Shown: piece after piece, positions 2,137 to 14,073 of the stretch
How positions within the stretch are numbered: the first letter of the stretch is position 1
How the letters are laid out: each line of letters starts with the position of its first letter
From: Minisyncoccota bacterium
GTDB lineage: Bacteria > Patescibacteriota > Minisyncoccia > Phycocordibacterales > UBA9973
Assembly: GCA_018061145.1 (NCBI GenBank)
Contig: JAGOUR010000005.1
Location: 1-59,929 of the forward strand
Direction of reading: 5' to 3'
Length of the DNA: 59,929 nucleotides
Translations under genes and position numbers: made by a program
The notes under the pieces: model-generated
The model's input: the letters and a program-made list of their open reading frames with translations, nothing else
Told to the model about the DNA's origin: nothing
Database searches by the model: none

Positions 2137-3930
2137 ATGATTACTCTTGATCTTGTAGAGTTTATTGAGAAAGAAGAAAAGAATGGTACACCTCGTGAGA
2201 AAATAAAATCCGAGCTACTTTCTGCTGGGTGGCTAGCAGAAGATATCGAAGAAGGTTTTCAGAAGGTTGCTCCGGCTTTTGTGGTGCCCAAGACCGTAGA
2301 ACCTGTTGCTCCTAAAATACAGACTACTTTTACTCCGGCCCTAAGCGCATCCCCAGCTGAACCAAAGGTGGATATTGTTGTCCCGGCAGAAATAAAAAAT
2401 CCAGAACCAGAAAAAATATCTGAGGTAAAACCAGTAGAACCAACACAACCAGTGCAACCAACCCCTTCAGTGCAAACAGTAGCTCCAATTGTTAAAAATA
2501 TCGAACCTCAAATTTCAGTAGCTCCTATTGTGGAGCCCGTTCCTGTTTCTGCGCCTGCTCCCGAACTCGTATCAACACCAGAAGTAAAAATAGATTCTAA
2601 TATTGAGCCAGAAACTCCAAAGATAGATCCATATAGGGAAGTGGTAAAAGAAGAAAAGCCCATCGAGAACAGCTTCTCTGCTTCTGTGCCACCATCTAAT
2701 CTTCCAAAAGTTTGGACCCCTTCAAATATCCCCATAATCTCTACAGAGAACACAGAAGTTATTCCTAGATTGATTCCAAAAAAAGTAGAGCCCGTAATCC
2801 CTCCAAAATCTGTACTACCACCAGTGCGTACACCAGAGAGAAAAGCAGAACTTGCAAAAGTTTACCAAAAGCCACCAGTCGCCCCTGTGGAGAACAATAT
2901 AGTGCCCCCTATGACGAGTGCCCCTGTGTCTGCTCCTGTGGGGTCTGTGTCATCTCCAGCGCCTATTTCAAGTATGCCTACTAGCCCAGCTCCAGTATCC
3001 ATGCCAGCAAGCCCTGTAGTAGAGATAAATCCTACGCCCGCTGTTTCTGTGCCACCAGTTGTAAATATCGCTCCTGCCACACCGGCTCCGTCTGGCAAGC
3101 CACCTTATATGGTTTTTGCAAAACAAGAATTATCAAAACCTGCACCTGGCCCAGCTTCTTCTCCGGTGTCATCACCGGCATCGTATTCTCCGAACAGTGC
3201 AGTCACTTCATCTTTCACTCGAGATTCAAAGAATTTTGTTTTTGAAGAAAAGAAGCCCGGGGTTCCAAGATTCATCGTAGGAGTTTTTATTTTTGTTGCG
3301 ATTGCTTGTATTTTTGGTGGGGTGGCTTTTGCTTACATGACTGGGCTGATAGATATTCCTTTTTTGCCAAAGATTAATCAGACAGCTGTAACTGCAAAAT
3401 ATATCGACCCAATAATAAATGAACAAAATTCAAATCAGCAAAATAATACGAACTTGGAAGTAGGTAATGTTACTAATTCTTTTGTGTTTGATGAGTCTGG
3501 TCAGACAGAAGGGTCTGGTAGTACAGATGTTCTTGTTCCTCCTGGTCCCGCTGTAGACATCGAAGCCTTAAAGACAAAAGACAAAAAAGTAGAAGAAATT
3601 ATTTCAAATATTGAACTTCAGATTTATAAAAAGTATGCATTGAATAAAAACCTGTATGGCACCAAGTCAAACCTCAAAGGCAGTTGTGTCGACCCAGAAA
3701 AAGATTCTCTTTTCTATACTGACCCTAATGATATGAATACAAACACTATCTCGTTTTTCTTGGGTAAAATATTTGATAATACGGATGGAGAGGGTTCTTG
3801 CTACTCTACAACTAAAGCTTGGGCTATGTCATTTCCATTGGCATCAGAGACTGGTAGCTATGTCTGCGTAGATAGTACAAATAAAAAGATCACTACAAAA
3901 ATCGCCTTATCTGGAACTGTATGCAAATAA
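2137..3930 (+). CDS. Pro/Val/Ser-rich bitopic membrane protein with Cys-containing C-terminal domain
   Basis: Small N-terminal helical domain, ~330-aa Pro-rich low-complexity tract, one TM helix (FIVGVFIFVAIACIFGGVAFAY), C-terminal ...YVCVDST...C domain. Confidence 0.75.
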   Translation: MITLDLVEFIEKEEKNGTPREKIKSELLSAGWLAEDIEEGFQKVAPAFVVPKTVEPVAPKIQTTFTPALSASPAEPKVDIVVPAEIKNPEPEKISEVKPVEPTQPVQPTPSVQTVAPIVKNIEPQISVAPIVEPVPVSAPAPELVSTPEVKIDSNIEPETPKIDPYREVVKEEKPIENSFSASVPPSNLPKVWTPSNIPIISTENTEVIPRLIPKKVEPVIPPKSVLPPVRTPERKAELAKVYQKPPVAPVENNIVPPMTSAPVSAPVGSVSSPAPISSMPTSPAPVSMPASPVVEINPTPAVSVPPVVNIAPATPAPSGKPPYMVFAKQELSKPAPGPASSPVSSPASYSPNSAVTSSFTRDSKNFVFEEKKPGVPRFIVGVFIFVAIACIFGGVAFAYMTGLIDIPFLPKINQTAVTAKYIDPIINEQNSNQQNNTNLEVGNVTNSFVFDESGQTEGSGSTDVLVPPGPAVDIEALKTKDKKVEEIISNIELQIYKKYALNKNLYGTKSNLKGSCVDPEKDSLFYTDPNDMNTNTISFFLGKIFDNTDGEGSCYSTTKAWAMSFPLASETGSYVCVDSTNKKITTKIALSGTVCK

Positions 3931-7411: not shown

Positions 7412-9151
7412 ATGATCCAAGACGAGGCATTGCAAATACTAAAGACTGGGGCCAATGTTTTCCTGACGGGGGAGCCTGGTGCCGGCAAGACACATACGAT
7501 AAATGAGTATGTGTCTTATTTGCGTTCTCGGGGTGTAGAGGTGGCTATCACTGCATCCACAGGTATAGCAGCTACACATATTGGCGGGATGACTATCCAC
7601 TCATGGAGTGGTATCGGTATTCGTAAATCTCTGACTAAATACGATCTGGATAAAATATCGACTAGTGAATATGTCACACGTCGTGTGAGTAAAGCAAAAG
7701 TCCTGGTGATAGACGAGGTGTCTATGCTAGGACCAAATACTATCGATATGGTGGATGCAGTATGTAGGGAAGTGCGACGTAGCACCGAGGCCTTTGGTGG
7801 ACTGCAGGTAATATTTGTCGGAGATTTTTTCCAACTACCGCCGATTACAAAGAGAGATATTTTAAATACAAAAGTTCCAGAGGATGACTACAATCAGGAC
7901 GCACTATTTGAAGCGAAGCCTTTAGGTATATTTGCATATGAATCTGAATCTTGGGCCAGAGCTCAGCCTATCACTTGCTACCTATCCGAGCAGTATCGCC
8001 AAGATGATGATACATTTTTGTCTATACTATCTTCTATCCGGTCCAATACTTTTGATGAAGATATGTTTGAGCACCTCGAAGCTCGTAGGGTAGAGGTAGG
8101 AAAAACATCTGCAAAAATGCTAAAGCTTTTTTCTCGCAATGTGGATGTGGACAGCGTGAATAATGCAATGCTGGAGAAAATAAAAGAAGAAAAAGAATTC
8201 TACCGTATGGTAGGTACTGGGAGGGATATCATAGTCGAGACACTCAAGAAGGGATGTCTGTCCCCAGACACACTAGTGCTCAAGCTCGGTGCGGAGGTGA
8301 TGTGCACAAAGAATAATCAAAAGGAGGGATATGTGAATGGTACCCTCGGTACTATCGTCGGCTTTGCATCGGGGACTCGCTATCCTATAGTTGAATCTCG
8401 TAATGGAAAAAAGTTTACAGTTGAACCTGCAGAGTGGGCCCTAGAGGAGAATGGAAAAGTGAGGGCAAGTATATCCCAGATACCGCTACGCCTGGCGTGG
8501 GCTATCACTGTGCACAAGAGTCAGGGTATGAGTCTGGACGAGGCTGTGATGGACCTTTCTGATGTATTTGAATATGGTCAGGGATACGTGGCACTCTCTC
8601 GCGTGCGCAGGCTCTCCGGCCTGCACCTGCTCGGTTGGAATAGGCGAGCATTTGAAGTTCACCCACAGATATTCTCCCAAGATCAGATATTCAAAGAGCA
8701 ATCAAGTGCTGCAGAAATAGAATTTTCAAAATTACCCAAAAATGAATTACAAAAAATGCATGACAATTTTATCCGTGCATCCGGAGGAGTAGTAAACCCC
8801 AGCCCGGATTTTCAGAAAAAAGTAAAAGATAAAAAAGGATCAAAAGTAGATACAAAAGAATTGACTCTAGATATGTGGAATGAAGGGCGCGATATAGTAG
8901 AGATTGCAAAGCTCCGTAAATTAAAAGAAAGTACAATTTTTACTCACATAGAAGAATTAGTGGAAGATGAAAAGATTCCAATAGGGGAGCTATCTAGGAT
9001 CCTAGATAAAAAGACAGACAAAGCTCTGCCTGCTATACACAAGGCTTTTCACAAGCTCGACACCCGATCACTGTCTGCAGTATTTGAGCATTTTGATGGA
9101 AAATATTCATATGATGAATTGCGGTTGGCTAGATTGTTGCTTGGAGAATAG
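7412..9151 (+). CDS. PIF1/RecD-like SF1B DNA helicase with C-terminal HTH
   Basis: GEPGAGKT, TASTGIAA, IDEVSM, GDFFQLPP, AITVHKSQG, YVALSR. C-terminal EIAKLRKLKESTIFTHI HTH. Confidence 0.92.
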   Translation: MIQDEALQILKTGANVFLTGEPGAGKTHTINEYVSYLRSRGVEVAITASTGIAATHIGGMTIHSWSGIGIRKSLTKYDLDKISTSEYVTRRVSKAKVLVIDEVSMLGPNTIDMVDAVCREVRRSTEAFGGLQVIFVGDFFQLPPITKRDILNTKVPEDDYNQDALFEAKPLGIFAYESESWARAQPITCYLSEQYRQDDDTFLSILSSIRSNTFDEDMFEHLEARRVEVGKTSAKMLKLFSRNVDVDSVNNAMLEKIKEEKEFYRMVGTGRDIIVETLKKGCLSPDTLVLKLGAEVMCTKNNQKEGYVNGTLGTIVGFASGTRYPIVESRNGKKFTVEPAEWALEENGKVRASISQIPLRLAWAITVHKSQGMSLDEAVMDLSDVFEYGQGYVALSRVRRLSGLHLLGWNRRAFEVHPQIFSQDQIFKEQSSAAEIEFSKLPKNELQKMHDNFIRASGGVVNPSPDFQKKVKDKKGSKVDTKELTLDMWNEGRDIVEIAKLRKLKESTIFTHIEELVEDEKIPIGELSRILDKKTDKALPAIHKAFHKLDTRSLSAVFEHFDGKYSYDELRLARLLLGE

Positions 9152-9231
9152 AGCATTAGAAAGCAGGCTTGCTTTTTTTACGGCTATATAGTAAAGTGTT
9201 CCTACTGGTCTTTACGACCTATTTTAAATAT

Positions 9232-9657
9232 ATGCCTACAATGAATCAATTGGTTCGCAAGAGCCGTACAATAATAAAAAGAAAATCAAAGGCCGTAGCT
9301 CTCGCTCGCGGTTTTAATGCGCTTAAAAATAAGCCAGTTTATTACCCAGCCCCATTCAAGCGTGGTGTTTGTACAAAAGTAACAACTACTACTCCTAAAA
9401 AGCCTAACTCTGCTCTCCGAAAGATCGCCCGTGTACGTCTTACAAATGGTATGGAAGTTACAGCTTATATCCCAGGTGAAGGTCACAACCTCCAAGAACA
9501 CTCTGTAGTTATGCTACGTGGTGGTCGTGTAAAAGACTTGATCGGAGTACGTTACCACATAGTTCGTGGACGTCTCGATGCTACTGGAGTTGAGAAACGT
9601 CGAAAAGCAAGAAGTAAGTATGGTAACAAGCGTCCAAAGGCTGGAGCTAAGAAATAA
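9232..9657 (+). CDS. rpsL: 30S ribosomal protein S12
   Basis: [38 protein letters not shown]. Confidence 0.98.
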
Positions 9658-9662
9658 AATTT

Positions 9663-10133
9663 ATGCGAAGAAAAGTAAAAAATCGAAATATTGTTGAACC
9701 AGATATCGTTTATAACTCACAAAAGCTTGGAAAGTTCATAAACAATGTTATGTGGGACGGAAAGAAGGAGACTTCAAGAAAGATTGTATACGGTGCCTTT
9801 GATATCATCAAAGAAAAGACTGGTAATCCAAATCCTCTAGAAGTTTTCGATACTGCAATCAAAAATGCAGGTCCTCTAGTAGAGGTTCGCTCACGTCGTA
9901 TCGGTGGTGCAAACTACCAGGTTCCTCGTGAAGTACGCCCAGACCGCCGCACATCACTAGCTATGAGATGGATAATCACAGCAGCTCGTGGAAAGAAAGG
10001 TGCAGCAATGGCAGAAAAGCTAGCTGAAGAGATAATCCTTGCTTCAAAGAACGAAGGTATCGCTATCAAGAAGCGTGATGATACTCACAAGATGGCAGAA
10101 TCAAACAAGGCGTTCGCTCACTTTGCTTGGTAA
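9663..10133 (+). CDS. rpsG: 30S ribosomal protein S7
   Basis: [30 protein letters not shown]. Follows rpsL. Confidence 0.98.
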
Positions 10134-10278
10134 ACCCGAACACTCATATTGCTATAGTTGCAATGTGGGTGTTTTCGTTTGTGTGGCACAGATAGTAATA
10201 TTGAAAAATAATCTTATTTAAAATAGTAAATATAATATTGCAACAAAAACACAATAGCAATATGAGTGTGCGGGTAAA
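10131..10278. mobile_element. MITE-like unit 1 (20-bp TIRs, TAAA flanking direct repeats)
   Basis: TAAA-CCCGAACACTCATATTGCTA ... TAGCAATATGAGTGTGCGGG-TAAA. TIRs 19/20 complementary. Confidence 0.65.
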
Positions 10279-10343
10279 TCCCGAATTGTGTCTTTTATAT
10301 TGAAAAAGCAGAATAACGGCAAATTAAGTGTGCGGGTAAATCC

Positions 10344-10490
10344 TAAACCCAGACACTCATTTTGTCATAGTTGCAGTTTGTATTTTCATTATTTAACAAT
10401 AAAGGCTCAAGGTTTAATCTATTTTTAAATGTAAGAGAGAGTATCTTTGGGCAACAAAAAATACAATGACAGAATGAGTGTATGGGTAAA
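10344..10490. mobile_element. MITE-like unit 2 (21-bp TIRs, TAAA flanking direct repeats)
   Basis: TAAA-CCCAGACACTCATTTTGTCAT ... ATGACAGAATGAGTGTATGGG-TAAA. TIRs 19/21 complementary. Confidence 0.65.
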
Positions 10491-10745
10491 TCAACCCAGA
10501 CTTCTTTTTATTCTGTCTTTTAAAAATCTCCTAGCATTGCCTCTAAGTTTAAGTGACTGCTCTCTTTCTCGGGCATCTTTTTCGTCTTTATAGGCTTCAT
10601 AGTATACAAGTTCAAATGGTGTCCTGAATTGAGTAGAAAAAGATTTTCCGGTTTGGTGTTCATCGAATCTTCGCTTTAGGTTATTGGTACTTCCAATGTA
10701 TAGTTCAGCATCTTTTTTGCTTTTTAATACGTATACATAAAACAT
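10491..10745 (-). CDS. Small standalone GIY-YIG nuclease
   Basis: MFYVYVLKS..LYIGSTNNLKRRFDEH..YYEAY..AREREQSLK. ATG 10745 lies 6 nt after TGT-TATTAT. Confidence 0.9.
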   Translation of the reverse strand: MFYVYVLKSKKDAELYIGSTNNLKRRFDEHQTGKSFSTQFRTPFELVYYEAYKDEKDAREREQSLKLRGNARRFLKDRIKRSLG

Positions 10746-10872
10746 GTATAAATAATAACACATAAGATTCTCCCCGAAAGGGGAGTTTTGTTATTTTGAC
10801 AAACATTGATATATATGTTATTTTTAGTAAAATTCTATTTATTTAAAAACAAAAAAGAAGGAGAAAAAAAGA

Positions 10873-11766
10873 ATGAAAAAGTCGCTTATTTTATTGAGTC
10901 TTATGGGGCTCTTGCTGAGTTTTACTGTTGTAAAGCTTCAAAACACCTTACCTGATCGGATTGTTGAGTATGGTCATATACTCGGTTATCAAAAAAATTT
11001 TGAAGAGAAAGATTACGGTATTGATTTACCCAAAACTTTCTATGATCCTAAGATTGCAAAGATTTTATCTGATAGTTTTTTGGTTAACAATCCTGTTCTC
11101 TTGCTTAAGATTCAGGCGTTTGCCTTGAAGTCAGAGCAAGAAAGCTACACATCTAATAAATGGAATGTAAGTGTAGCGTACGGTATGATGCCATTTTGTG
11201 GAGGTACCTGGGAACATGCAACCTTAAGTTTTTTTCAAAATGAAGCAAAGAAGTATGTTGTATCCAAACTTATTAGAGATAGGGTGTCTCAGGTAAAATT
11301 GTACAACTGGGCAAAGCCGACCATTATCGCCGCTTGGGTTTCCAAGAAAGATAATTTTCAAGCTGTTGATATGTTTGCCGTTTGGAAAGCAAATCAGTAT
11401 CTTGTTCAATATGATTATCGTTCTGAATCATTGCGTGAAAAAGTTATCGTACCTATTAAGTATCGTTATGGGCAAAACAATGAATTTGAAAGTGAGTTAC
11501 GTCTAACGTATACTTGCTTGGATTGGAAAAATAACGAAGACGATGATGCAAAATTGTACGCTTTTTGGCATCGCAGGATTAAAGAACATCAAAAAACAGG
11601 AAGTGGATTTTCATTGGCAGATGCTAAGTATTGGAATCAAATTGCATTTAACGACATGTTTAAAAATGCAACTACTCCAGCAAAAGCATTATTTGATTCG
11701 TGGAAAAAAATGTGGCTAAAAGATCACACTAACCCTACGAAAGAAATGATCTTTGCTCAAAAGTAA
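10873..11766 (+). CDS. Hypothetical secreted/membrane-anchored protein
   Basis: 297-aa ORF with MKK plus hydrophobic N-terminus, SD-like AAGGAG upstream, TTGACA at 10796, terminator at ~11786-11816. Confidence 0.7.
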   Translation: MKKSLILLSLMGLLLSFTVVKLQNTLPDRIVEYGHILGYQKNFEEKDYGIDLPKTFYDPKIAKILSDSFLVNNPVLLLKIQAFALKSEQESYTSNKWNVSVAYGMMPFCGGTWEHATLSFFQNEAKKYVVSKLIRDRVSQVKLYNWAKPTIIAAWVSKKDNFQAVDMFAVWKANQYLVQYDYRSESLREKVIVPIKYRYGQNNEFESELRLTYTCLDWKNNEDDDAKLYAFWHRRIKEHQKTGSGFSLADAKYWNQIAFNDMFKNATTPAKALFDSWKKMWLKDHTNPTKEMIFAQK

Positions 11767-11818
11767 TTTCGTTCATTTTTTAAATAAAAACACTTACCAA
11801 AAGGTAGGTGTTTTTTTG

Positions 11819-11847
11819 TTGCAAAATTAGCCTATTTGTTGTATATT
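11819..11847 (+). promoter_or_regulatory. Sigma70-type promoter of fusA
   Basis: TTGCAA-17 nt-TATATT directly after the upstream terminator. Confidence 0.6.
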
Positions 11848-11898
11848 CTAGGGACAAATGCCTTACGGGGTTTTTTATTTTATTAATAAGAATTATAT

Positions 11899-11928
11899 CC
11901 ACCTTCGCGAAAGCTACGGCGGGACAAG
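11899..11928. repeat. REP-like GC-rich hairpin in fusA leader
   Basis: CCACCTTCGCGAAAGCTACGGCGGGACAAG: GC-GAAA-GC tetraloop stem in AT-rich context, ending 3 nt before the ATG. Confidence 0.4.
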
Positions 11929-11931
11929 TAT

Positions 11932-14073
11932 ATGGAAAGAGATTATCCTTTAGAAAAAGTTAGAAATATAGGTATTATTGCCCACATCGATGCGGGTAAG
12001 ACTACAACAACAGAACGTGTATTGTTTTACACTGGTGTGTCACACAAGATAGGTGAGGTGCACGATGGGGAGACAACAACAGACTGGATGGAACAAGAGC
12101 GCGAGCGTGGTATCACTATCACATCTGCTGCTGTTACTTGTTTCTGGACACCGACATATGCACTGACAGACAAGACAAAGAAGCACCGTTTTAACATTAT
12201 CGATACACCAGGACACATCGACTTTACTGTAGAAGTAAAAAGATCACTGCGCGTACTCGATGGTGCAGTAGTTGTGTTCGATGGAGTGGCTGGAGTAGAG
12301 CCACAATCTGAAACTAACTGGCGCTATGCTGACGAGGCAAATGTGCCACGTATCTGTTTCGTAAACAAGCTTGACCGTACAGGCGCATCTTTTGAGCACT
12401 CATACAAAACTATCCTAGAGAGACTTACTAAAAAAGCTATCCGTATGCAAATCCCAATCGGTCTTGAAGAAAAGCACGAAGGTGTGATTGACCTATTGAA
12501 GATGAAGGCTTACTACTTTGAAGGGGAGATGGGTAACAAAGTTATCGAAAAAGAAATCCCAGAAGAATACAAGGCAGAAGCAGAAAAGTACCACGCAGAA
12601 CTAGTAGAAAAGATCGTCGAACAAGATGATCAGATTATGAGTGACTACTTTGAAGGAAAAGTTCCAGATGTTGAGACTCTAAAGAAGCTAATGCGTAAGG
12701 CTGTCATTGCCAACGATGTATTCCCAGTATTCGCAGGATCAGCTCTAAAAAACAAGGGAGTTCAACTAGTGCTCGACGCAGTTGTTGACTATCTACCAGC
12801 TCCTATCGACATTCCTCCTATCACAGGTATCGATCCAAATACAGATGAGCCACTAGTGCGCAAGGCTTCAGATGCTGAACCATTCTCAGCCCTAGCATTC
12901 AAAATCGCTACTGACCCATTCGTAGGACAGATCATATTCTTCCGTGTATATTCTGGATCTATCACTGCAGGTTCATACGTGTACAACCCTCGTACAAGAA
13001 ATAAAGAACGTATCGGACGAATCTTGCGTATGCATGCCAATGATCGTGAAGAGGTGAAGAAGGTATATGCTGGAGAAATCGCAGCAGCAGTAGGATTGAA
13101 AGATACTATCACTTCAGACACTCTATGTGATGAGAATGCGCCAGCAGAGCTAGTACGTATCATCTTCCCAGAGCCAGTTATCTCTCTACGTGTAGAGCCA
13201 AAGACAAAGGCAGACCAAGAGAAAATGGGTATGGCGCTAAACCGTCTCGCTCAAGAAGATCCGACATTCAAGGTAAGTACTGATCAGGAAACAAATGAGA
13301 CAATCATCGCAGGTATGGGAGAGCTCCACCTGGAAATCATCGTAGATCGTATGAAGCGTGAATTCGCTGTCGAGACAAATGTAGGTAAGCCACAGGTTGC
13401 ATATCGTGAGACAATCACAGGTACAGCAGATGTAGAAGGCAAGTACATCAAGCAATCAGGAGGACGTGGAAACTACGGTCACGTAAAGATCAAGATCAAG
13501 CCTATGGATATGAGTGTAGATCCAAATGATCTTCCAAAGAACGTAAAACGTGAAAAAGGATTTGAGTTCGTAAACACAATCAAAGGAGGTGCTATTCCAC
13601 AAGAATACATCCCAGCTTGTGAAAAAGGATTCAAAGAAGGTCTCGATCGTGGAGTTCTCGCAGGATTCAAGATGGAGAATGTGTCTGTCGAGCTATGGGA
13701 TGGAAGTTACCACGATGTGGACTCAAACGAAATGGCCTTCAAGATCGCAGCCTCTATGGCAATCCAAGATGCATGTAAGATGGCTCGCCCTGTGATCCTA
13801 GAACCTATGATGAATGTTGAAGTTGTTACTCCAGATAAATTCATGGGAGATGTGACAGGAAGTCTATCTTCAAAGCGTGGACTAATTGAAGGTATGGAAC
13901 AACGTGGTATGAACCAAGCAGTGAAAGCTGTCGTTCCACTATCTGAAATGTTCGGTTACATGACAACTCTACGTTCTATGACAGAAGGTCGCGCAGGATT
14001 CACTATGGAATTCCTACGTTACGACATAGTTCCACAAAATGTGGCTACAACAATAATAGAATCTAGAAAGTAG
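11932..14073 (+). CDS. fusA: Elongation factor G
   Basis: [44 protein letters not shown]. Confidence 0.99.

Follow-up and report, generated by a model that had tools for sequence, protein, structure and literature searches.

The 59,929-nt stretch analysed here (the window; contig JAGOUR010000005.1 of a Minisyncoccota bacterium) carries a group of palindromic DNA units in the spacer between rpsG and a convergent gene for a small GIY-YIG protein. All window coordinates count from its first letter. rpsG, listed among the open reading frames (ORFs) at 9663-10133 on the + strand, encodes ribosomal protein S7 and has S7 homologues of 55-90% identity in 80 loci. The GIY-YIG gene occupies 10491-10745 on the - strand, with its stop codon at 10491-10493. 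The start ATG ending at 10745 is supported by homologues and gives a protein of 84 aa; an upstream in-frame ATG at 10763 would extend it to 90 aa. The two stop codons are separated by 357 bp, and this spacer carries the hairpin units.

Two of the units are long and of one type, termed type A. Unit 1 (10131-10278, + strand) measures 148 bp from TAAA to TAAA. The left TAAA (10131-10134) contains the rpsG stop codon TAA (10131-10133), the core extends over 10135-10274 with the foot CCCGAACACTC / GAGTGTGCGGG, and the right TAAA lies at 10275-10278. The 25-nt arms of unit 1 (10134-10158 and 10251-10275) are 92% complementary. Unit 2 (10344-10490, + strand) is a 147-bp variant of the same type, in which TAAA at 10344-10347 is followed by a core at 10348-10486 (foot CCCAGACACTC / GAGTGTATGGG) and a second TAAA at 10487-10490 that directly adjoins the GIY-YIG stop codon. 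Its arms (10347-10371 and 10463-10487) are 88% complementary. An earlier reading of the sequence alone (the sequence-only reading) had described two TAAA-flanked units of these lengths, one starting at the rpsG stop and one ending where the GIY-YIG gene ends, and both are present as described. It had also described an orphan right end. This end, AAGTGTGCGGGTAAA, is indeed found at 10326-10340, but it is not bare. It closes an internally deleted unit of a second long type, type B (10280-10340, + strand), which consists of a CCCGAA left end, a deletion, and a right half ending in AAGTGTGCGGG and TAAA (10337-10340). Window positions 10288-10337 are identical to the right half of the type-B unit of comparison locus L227 at 48 of 50 positions, and the deleted unit matches that of L166 at 42 of 45.

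The units are real, non-random palindromic elements. The right-end pattern has seven matches in the window against 1.3 expected (0/100 shuffles reach seven), and the left-end pattern has four against 0.19 expected, a count that no shuffle reached. All copies lie at 10131-10490, with no end motif elsewhere in the 59.9 kb. The fold z-score of the unit region is -7.2 on the + strand and -6.7 on the - strand. No Rfam family matches the units at its gathering threshold, and no tRNA accounts for them. The Rfam matches below threshold (22-36 bits) are to plant microRNA-precursor models with thresholds of 74-140 bits and were set aside as generic hairpins. A scan of viral contigs for the hairpin pattern gave no match. 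Two further candidates were rejected. A putative decayed unit upstream of fusA (~11900-11931) aligned to type-B units only weakly and with gaps, and the resemblance of the 3' end of the GIY-YIG gene (AACCCAGACTTC) to the foot is not meaningful, this stretch being conserved RSLG codons that are encoded differently in L001.

Conserved folds of the unit family

Further copies, which would be expected of the element family proposed in the sequence-only reading, were found. A systematic search of the available sequence yielded 27 distinct units of ~28-319 nt, which share one foot, CCCGCACACT...AGTGTGCGGG (also given as ACCCGCACACT...AGTGTGCGGGT), and differ in their interiors. They comprise mini-hairpins of 28-39 nt, short three-way junctions of ~72 nt, one unit each of 95 nt and 103 nt, the two unrelated long subtypes A and B of 137-143 nt, and units of 297-319 nt in which the nuclease ORF forms the loop.

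Seven distinct short units align as a three-way junction, with an outer stem of ~20 bp and two small hairpins. The alignment contains 29 pairs with 97.5% of cells paired, and 12 of the pairs have changed on both sides. None of 500 shuffles matches this pairing, and slid controls are 27-48% paired. The type-A class, also represented by seven units, shares a 21-bp outer stem with seven covarying pairs, an invariant 6-bp helix (GTTGCA/TGCAAC) and a 7-bp helix (GTGTTTT/AAAACAC; alignment columns 36-42 with 115-121, the window units entering at 10134-10275 and 10347-10487). Here 98% of cells are paired and eight pairs have changed on both sides. Because the blocks follow one another in the order X-Y...X'-Y', the 6-bp and 7-bp helices cross, either as a pseudoknot or as two alternative folds. 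The crossing helix shows one compensatory change, G-C to A-U, which is carried by unit 2 of the window.

The two window units illustrate this pattern. Unit 1 has all three helices, and its near-identical counterpart in L001 shows a compensatory replacement of G-C by A-T. Unit 2 differs from unit 1 by compensatory changes in the outer stem as well as in the crossing helix; the inner-stem differences between them are complementary, with one unit 2 position forming G.T. The compensatory change that the sequence-only reading saw in the terminal repeats of these two units thus holds, and it extends beyond them to the short and type-A classes. Structure is constrained beyond the terminal repeats. 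The covariation, which includes several G.U pairs on the strand shown, could be due either to selection acting on the folded strand or to a mode of copying by which palindromes are regenerated.

Linkage of the units to one GIY-YIG subfamily

The 84-aa protein matches Pfam PF01541 over residues 7-77 (E=4e-18) and consists of the catalytic domain alone. Its 431 homologues, mostly exactly 84 aa long, come from metagenome-assembled genomes of Patescibacteria/Paceibacterota and from metagenomes; the wider GIY-YIG family comprises 6855 representatives of 50%-identity clusters at E<=1e-3. Among 117 homologues, the GIY, YIG, R, EH and E motifs show conservation of 90% or more. The PADLOC defence models gave weak, partial matches to the GIY domain, and the NCBIfam matches to this domain were below threshold. 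Among solved structures, the best phmmer match is the UPF0213 protein 1zg2 (29 bits), with 18 bits for the UPF0213 protein 1ywl.

Every gene of this subfamily examined has the foot beside it, across four genomic contexts that are unrelated to one another. The closest homologues (80-89% identity) lie between rpsG and fusA and are convergent with rpsG (L001-L006, L087-094, L108, L114, L179, L227-238, L243-246). In these carriers a unit with the same foot begins directly after the rpsG stop, and the convergent stop codons of rpsG and the GIY-YIG gene always have one unit between them. In 80 species-representative rpsG loci (S7 identity 55-90%, ~0.87 Mb), no such gene is present between rpsG and fusA and no foot was detected at <=1 mismatch; in this comparison the foot occurs only where the subfamily occurs (the window and L001-006). 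More distant homologues (~70% identity) sit in unrelated contexts, where the arms of the same inverted repeat bracket the ORF. One such element follows a tyrosine-recombinase gene (L095-102; TTTACCCGCACACTAACTTT - ORF - AAGTTAGTGTGCGGGTATA), another follows a VTT-domain gene (L240; AAAACCCGCACACTTACTTTT - ORF - AAAAGTAAGTGTGCGGGAAAA), and a third lies between secA and murB (L103-106; CTCTCACACTTAGATAT - ORF - ATATCTAAGTGTGCGAG). Repeats stand on both sides of the gene in L001, L087, L095-102, L103-106, L179, L227, L233 and L240. In the loci examined, the units co-occur strictly with this one GIY-YIG subfamily, and the association, which the sequence-only reading had anticipated, is genuine.

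Copies of the unit were also found as solo elements. A metagenome scan for the 16-nt right end returned 120 matches, of which nine loci have a partner arm and the others are chance matches. The solo units stand directly after the stop codons of other genes, in loci of 4.5-15 kb that contain no GIY-YIG gene and in hosts of 29-59% GC. They include a unit directly after the stop of a 569-aa gene (L166, L189, L196), a unit that separates an S4-like gene from the gene that follows in an organism of 59% GC (L173), and units in a 29%-GC organism (L147) and a 55%-GC organism (L107). A fragment of the type-B unit is 96% identical between different genomes and also occurs at an unrelated locus.

A GIY-YIG paralogue with 48% identity is present between rpmB and an M50 peptidase gene (L007 4553-4807; L227 4593-4847). 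The 17-nt inverted repeat on either side of it is a different one (TGCAATCCCGTTAGAGAT / ATCTCTAACGGGATGCA; ...ATCCCGTTAGAGAT / ATCTCTAACGGGAT...), so each protein lineage seems to own its repeat. L227 contains both the main-subfamily gene and the paralogue, each with repeats, and therefore holds two nuclease-repeat pairs within 2.3 kb. A third and more distant GIY-YIG gene, of 79 aa, is found at L245 922-1161, on the same contig as the rpsG-fusA copy and 9 kb from it.

The block that contains the units and the GIY-YIG gene is itself an insertion between rpsG and its terminator, a feature absent from the sequence-only reading. The intrinsic terminator, CTCCCCGAAAGGGGAG followed by a T-run (10770-10785, + strand), is that of rpsG, and the same terminator is found in relatives. 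In many of them the rpsG stop is followed by a spacer of 7-45 nt and then by CTCCCCGAAAGGGGAG. In the window the inserted block (10134-10769) has moved the terminator ~636 bp downstream. A contig from RNA library X27 agrees with the 3' end of rpsG over 62 of 63 positions, continues for 24 nt, and then matches 10770-10797 at 27 of 28; since this contig and the relatives lack 10134-10769, the units and the GIY-YIG gene represent inserted DNA. The X27 contig also points to a cassette-free relative in wastewater, in which the rpsG transcript reaches this terminator. Metagenome contigs matched at 85% likeness, mostly from rpsG of other species, diverge from the window precisely at the stop codon. 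The RNA contigs matched to the region left the units uncovered.

In Paceibacteria, the str operon has an insertion hotspot where rpsG meets fusA. Downstream of the terminator the window has a 297-aa ORF (10873-11766, + strand) with an N-terminal hydrophobic segment and no match in Pfam, NCBIfam or PADLOC. It is variable cargo of the spacer, and other carriers have unrelated ORFs without Pfam matches in its place. The spacer ends at fusA (elongation factor G, EF-G; 11932-14073, + strand). Across the window (10134-11931) and L007-L086, rpsG-fusA spacers range from 9 nt to 3.4 kb, and the ORFs found in such spacers are unrelated and without Pfam matches (297 aa in the window, 162 aa in L087, 198 aa in L227, 95 aa in L233, and three in L007). 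Besides rpsG, the 297-aa ORF and fusA, the neighbours of the window locus are an APH-family kinase, a PIF1-like helicase and rpsL (9169-9657). No transposase was found within ~3.5 kb on either side, in agreement with the sequence-only reading. The PIF1-like helicase (7412-9151), directly upstream of rpsL, has a C-terminal HTH_40 domain. Elsewhere in the window, 23203-23330 matches the AdoCbl (cobalamin) riboswitch with 50.5 bits against an Rfam gathering score of 50.

Gain and loss of units and their interpretation

Several comparisons show that units differ between closely related sequences. In L001 a loop of a short unit contains a nested mini-hairpin. L227 and L228, which are 98.6% identical over 2.7 kb, differ by a 38-nt insertion or deletion (indel) that holds a mini-hairpin, and L239 and L240 differ by the loss of the right repeat. 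Direct repeats of 4 nt, T(A/T)(A/T)A, stand on either side of the units and are perfect in 8 of 13 cases. Their orientation (TAAA or TTTA) switches with respect to the polarity of the interior, as it should if these sequences come from the target.

Sites without the cassette are also found. In L009, L017, L018 and L026 the rpsG TAA is followed by 8-10 AT-rich nucleotides and the fusA ATG. The empty sites foreseen in the sequence-only reading therefore exist as cassette-free rpsG-fusA junctions, but none of the filled and empty pairs compared has a clean single-copy target. The proposal that the units target stop codons or TAAA without damage to genes is partly supported. Units lie 0-4 nt from stop or start codons and leave the genes unbroken, the 4-nt direct repeats are present, and a TAAA-type target would by itself hit TAA stop codons; gene-boundary placement could, however, reflect selection in compact genomes as much as targeting. 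The idea of a non-autonomous element family stands in so far as the units share termini and covarying stems and have ORF-bearing versions, but they are low in copy number and undispersed, unlike classical MITEs (miniature inverted-repeat transposable elements).

The distribution of carriers is patchy. In a neighbour-joining tree of EF-G, carriers take at least four separate positions among non-carriers, and L179 is sister to the non-carrier L012. This pattern fits transfer between lineages without proving it. The identity of the GIY-YIG protein between carriers is flat (79-88%), with S7 of the same genomes at 67-85%; at third codon positions, the identity is 51-67% for the GIY-YIG gene and 37-54% for S7. 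The flat identity likewise fits transfer between lineages. In L095-L102 (~2900-3340; in L095, 2975-3271 and ~70 nt more), the repeat-GIY-repeat element lies at the 3' end of the 308-aa tyrosine-recombinase gene, and a diverged duplicate of the last 22 codons of that gene (VYTHITDKQLRDVHKKFHSKK*) is found beyond the right repeat. The element seems to have come with a donor copy of the gene end, and its right junction seems to lie at a microhomology (AGTGT...GTATAC). The duplicate fits arrival by recombination through flanking homology, which lends indirect support to the spread of the cassette.

A precedent for a GIY-YIG protein linked to hairpin repeats is provided by the Ssn nucleases. These are single-domain GIY-YIG proteins of ~94 aa (CDD cd10448) that bind a hairpin, named NTS or SRM, in single-stranded DNA (ssDNA) and cut beside it, and they act on neither double-stranded DNA nor RNA (PMC11893778). 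By analogy, we consider it probable (roughly 0.6) that the units are the cognate hairpin repeats of the 84-aa GIY-YIG protein, which would be a putative Ssn-like ssDNA nuclease specific for both structure and sequence, and that repeats and nuclease form a selfish or semi-domesticated module of Patescibacteria. This reading draws together the shared termini, the covariation, the gene linkage, the conserved catalytic motifs, the unit polymorphisms and the cassette-free sites. The nuclease activity and its specificity are predicted from the likeness to Ssn, and the nuclease, rather than another enzyme, presumably drives the gain and loss of units.

The recognised part would be the foot, in which (T/A)AAA precedes and TAAA follows CCCGCACACT...AGTGTGCGGG. 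The interior would be free to vary and may hold nothing, two small hairpins, ~100 nt of AT-rich sequence, or the nuclease ORF. Whenever the DNA becomes single-stranded, during replication, transformation or repair, a unit could fold into a hairpin or a three-way junction. The nuclease would then bind the folded foot and, if it behaves as Ssn does, nick beside it. More speculatively, repair could copy, delete or re-insert units at T(A/T)(A/T)A sites, of which stop codons and AT-rich spacers offer many, and host processing of the nicks, by repair or fold-back priming, could give rise to insertions, deletions and tandem or nested arrays. The whole cassette might spread between lineages by recombination through the conserved rpsG and fusA genes, which is also speculative.

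Several observations weigh against this reading. In many carriers (the window, L005, L006, L243 and L245) a unit is present only 3' of the gene. Copy number is 1-4 units per locus, and in carrier loci these always lie within ~1 kb of the nuclease gene; the rest of the 60-kb window and two loci with flanks of 10 kb yielded no further units, L243 (20 kb) and L245 (15.7 kb) having a single unit each. Such low numbers are as compatible with a static cis element as with a mobile one. The 4-nt direct repeats are imperfect, with one mismatch, in 5 of 13 units, and the L227/L228 indel shows no clean duplication. The flat identity of the GIY-YIG protein could equally stem from strong constraint on a small protein. 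The published SRM motif, HGTCWYN(0-2)YYVSBRHN(0-5)WNVSBRGN(0-2)RNCYNB, is unmatched at the units of the window, L001, L007, L095, L103 and L240. Finally, GIY-YIG enzymes hydrolyse DNA and to our knowledge are not known for strand transfer, and we know of no precedent for a role as transposase.

In a bolder alternative, the 84-aa GIY-YIG protein would itself mobilise a class of hairpin transposons not recognised before and represent a third route beside the DDE and HUH/Y1 enzymes. Its hydrolytic nick next to a folded foot would be followed by host repair or fold-back synthesis, which would bring about excision as well as insertion at TAAA-type sites and produce the 4-nt duplications. We hold this to be possible but, on present evidence, unlikely. 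If the protein were such a mobiliser, the three-way-junction and pseudoknot-like interiors might tentatively be viewed as functional ssDNA (or RNA) structures carried as cargo.

The module could instead be a domesticated and immobile Ssn-like system that cuts incoming or displaced ssDNA at the hairpins and modulates transformation or recombination around the str operon; its patchy distribution would then go back to an ancient insertion followed by many losses. Neisseria SsnA, which restricts NTS-bearing transforming DNA (PMC11893778), offers a model for such a role. The rpsG-fusA position is kept in lineages with S7 identity of only 67-73%, the synonymous sites of the GIY-YIG gene are largely saturated, which marks the gene as old, and its catalytic motifs are under purifying selection. 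An immobile system sits poorly with the strain-level indels of units, the near-identity of the type-B fragment between genomes and at an unrelated locus, the presence of the same element at several unrelated sites, and the difference in carriage between the sister taxa L179 and L012. We therefore regard this explanation as rather doubtful.

It is improbable that an unlinked enzyme (Y1/HUH, DDE or Xer-type) moves the units and that the GIY-YIG gene is cargo or a free-standing homing-type endonuclease that spreads the cassette by break repair. GIY-YIG proteins are not known as transposases, free-standing GIY-YIG homing endonucleases show the same patchy placement between genes, the L095-102 element adjoins a tyrosine-recombinase gene, and the solo copies have no GIY-YIG gene in their loci. 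However, no transposase or recombinase is found near the window locus or most other loci, the 84-aa protein lacks the DNA-binding domain that homing endonucleases need, and foot and gene co-occur completely in the loci examined. That the paralogue has a different repeat further suggests that protein and repeat have evolved together, as in Ssn/SRM pairs.

Least probable of all are static, vertically inherited cis RNA elements (stabilisers in the 3' untranslated region, bidirectional terminators or RNase III sites serving the rpsG and GIY-YIG transcripts that converge here, or regulators antisense to the nuclease gene) whose apparent mobility is indel turnover: strong covariation with several G.U pairs, the constant unit between the convergent stops, the low copy number, and a position upstream of the displaced terminator that probably places the units in the rpsG transcript speak for them, but the same foot brackets an ORF in three other contexts and occurs solo after unrelated genes in hosts of 29-59% GC, an invariant foot of 13-16 nt around replaced interiors suggests a site that a protein recognises more than it does a generic stem, copies occur nested and with 4-nt direct repeats at their flanks, and no Rfam family matches at threshold.

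Comparison with known nuclease-repeat and transposon systems

Free-standing GIY-YIG homing endonucleases, such as the Seg proteins of T4-like phages, resemble the module in their location between conserved genes, their patchy distribution and their probable spread via flanking sequence. They differ in having a large DNA-binding domain and no repeats, whereas the present protein is a bare catalytic domain accompanied by hairpin units. IS200/IS605 elements and the palindrome-associated elements derived from them (PATEs) share the recognition of subterminal ssDNA hairpins and insertion at a specific tetranucleotide that leaves genes undamaged. Elements of this group use the Y1 transposase TnpA, often with TnpB, and have asymmetric ends without target duplication; here the ends are symmetric and apparent 4-nt direct repeats are present.

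Correia elements and NIMEs/dRS3 of Neisseria, and MITEs in general, are similar to the long units in size (100-150 bp), in their terminal inverted repeats of ~25 bp, in their short A/T-rich duplications, and in lying next to genes, where they can form hairpins in mRNA. Elements of these kinds exist as many dispersed copies; either they have termini derived from DDE-type insertion sequences (IS), or the enzyme that mobilises them is unknown. In contrast, the present copies cluster at the nuclease gene and their interiors covary beyond the terminal repeats.

REP/BIME and REPIN sequences with their RAYT proteins (REPtrons) are extragenic palindromes that fold as ssDNA hairpins, are inverted around a single-copy nuclease gene, and occur in clusters and doublets, all of which recalls the units described here. 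The REP/RAYT system is regarded as a domesticated mobile element. RAYT (TnpA-REP) is a Y1 HUH transposase with covalent intermediates, whereas the enzyme here would be a hydrolytic GIY-YIG nuclease; no Y1 or other transposase family was found among the neighbours of the loci examined. REPs also number hundreds per genome and lack target duplications.

The closest counterpart is the Ssn/SRM system. A 2025 paper presented the Ssn proteins as the first ssDNA endonucleases with site specificity (Chenal et al., Nat Commun; PMC11893778). The ssn genes are typically flanked by repeats, and the authors noted an IS-like, REP/RAYT-like layout and proposed domestication, leaving the mobility of the module as a hypothesis (PMC11893778). 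That paper does not mention Patescibacteria (PMC11893778), and a literature search found no other paper on the subject. Both systems have a single-domain GIY-YIG protein of ~85-95 aa, a gene flanked by hairpin-forming inverted repeats that have a CCCGC/GCGGG core and lie outside genes, a separate repeat for each protein lineage, and an IS-like layout. In phmmer, the window protein scores 36-37 bits against two SRM-flanked alphaproteobacterial proteins, which serve as a proxy for clade cd10448, as compared with the 29 and 18 bits to the UPF0213 (cd10456) structures; this difference is suggestive only. Canonical NTS-like SRMs, CGTCATCCCCGCGAAGGCGGGGATCCAG, flank the homologues encoded on Azospirillum and Rhizobium plasmids, and the SRM expression that is unmatched at the CPR (candidate phyla radiation) units finds 4-5 SRMs around these homologues. 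In L241 (Azospirillum lipoferum plasmid AZO_p3, 1189-1482) and L242 (a Rhizobium plasmid), the Ssn-type gene is placed between sufB and sufC with inverted doublets of CGTCATCCCCGCGAAGGCGGGGATCCAG on both sides, showing the same habit of insertion between conserved genes as the CPR loci.

The two systems differ in several respects. The CPR units lack the conserved, oriented 5' CGTCAT flank. SRMs are simple hairpins of 20-50 nt, whereas the CPR units measure 28-143 nt and have long stems, three-way junctions or an ORF in the loop. SRMs number hundreds per genome, against 1-4 units per CPR locus. The hosts are CPR/Patescibacteria, and the evidence of insertion, nesting and 4-nt direct repeats is new. 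The module probably works like Ssn/SRM and is a candidate member of this defined family, though one whose repeats leave the SRM motif unmatched.

The system is accordingly a CPR-specific counterpart of the recently described Ssn/hairpin-repeat systems and not categorically new, the published Ssn/NTS/SRM precedent (PMC11893778) lowering its novelty. Its main value lies in comparative evidence for the gain and loss of units by nuclease-repeat modules. The nesting of copies, the indels between strains, the direct repeats at the flanks, the shared termini that enclose unrelated interiors, the nuclease ORF among them, and the cassette-free sites all bear on the mobility of Ssn modules, and the very few copies in streamlined CPR genomes make individual events cleanly readable. 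The module also adds a new and much longer candidate nuclease-substrate pair with a clear foot to those of the Ssn family, which could serve ssDNA tools.

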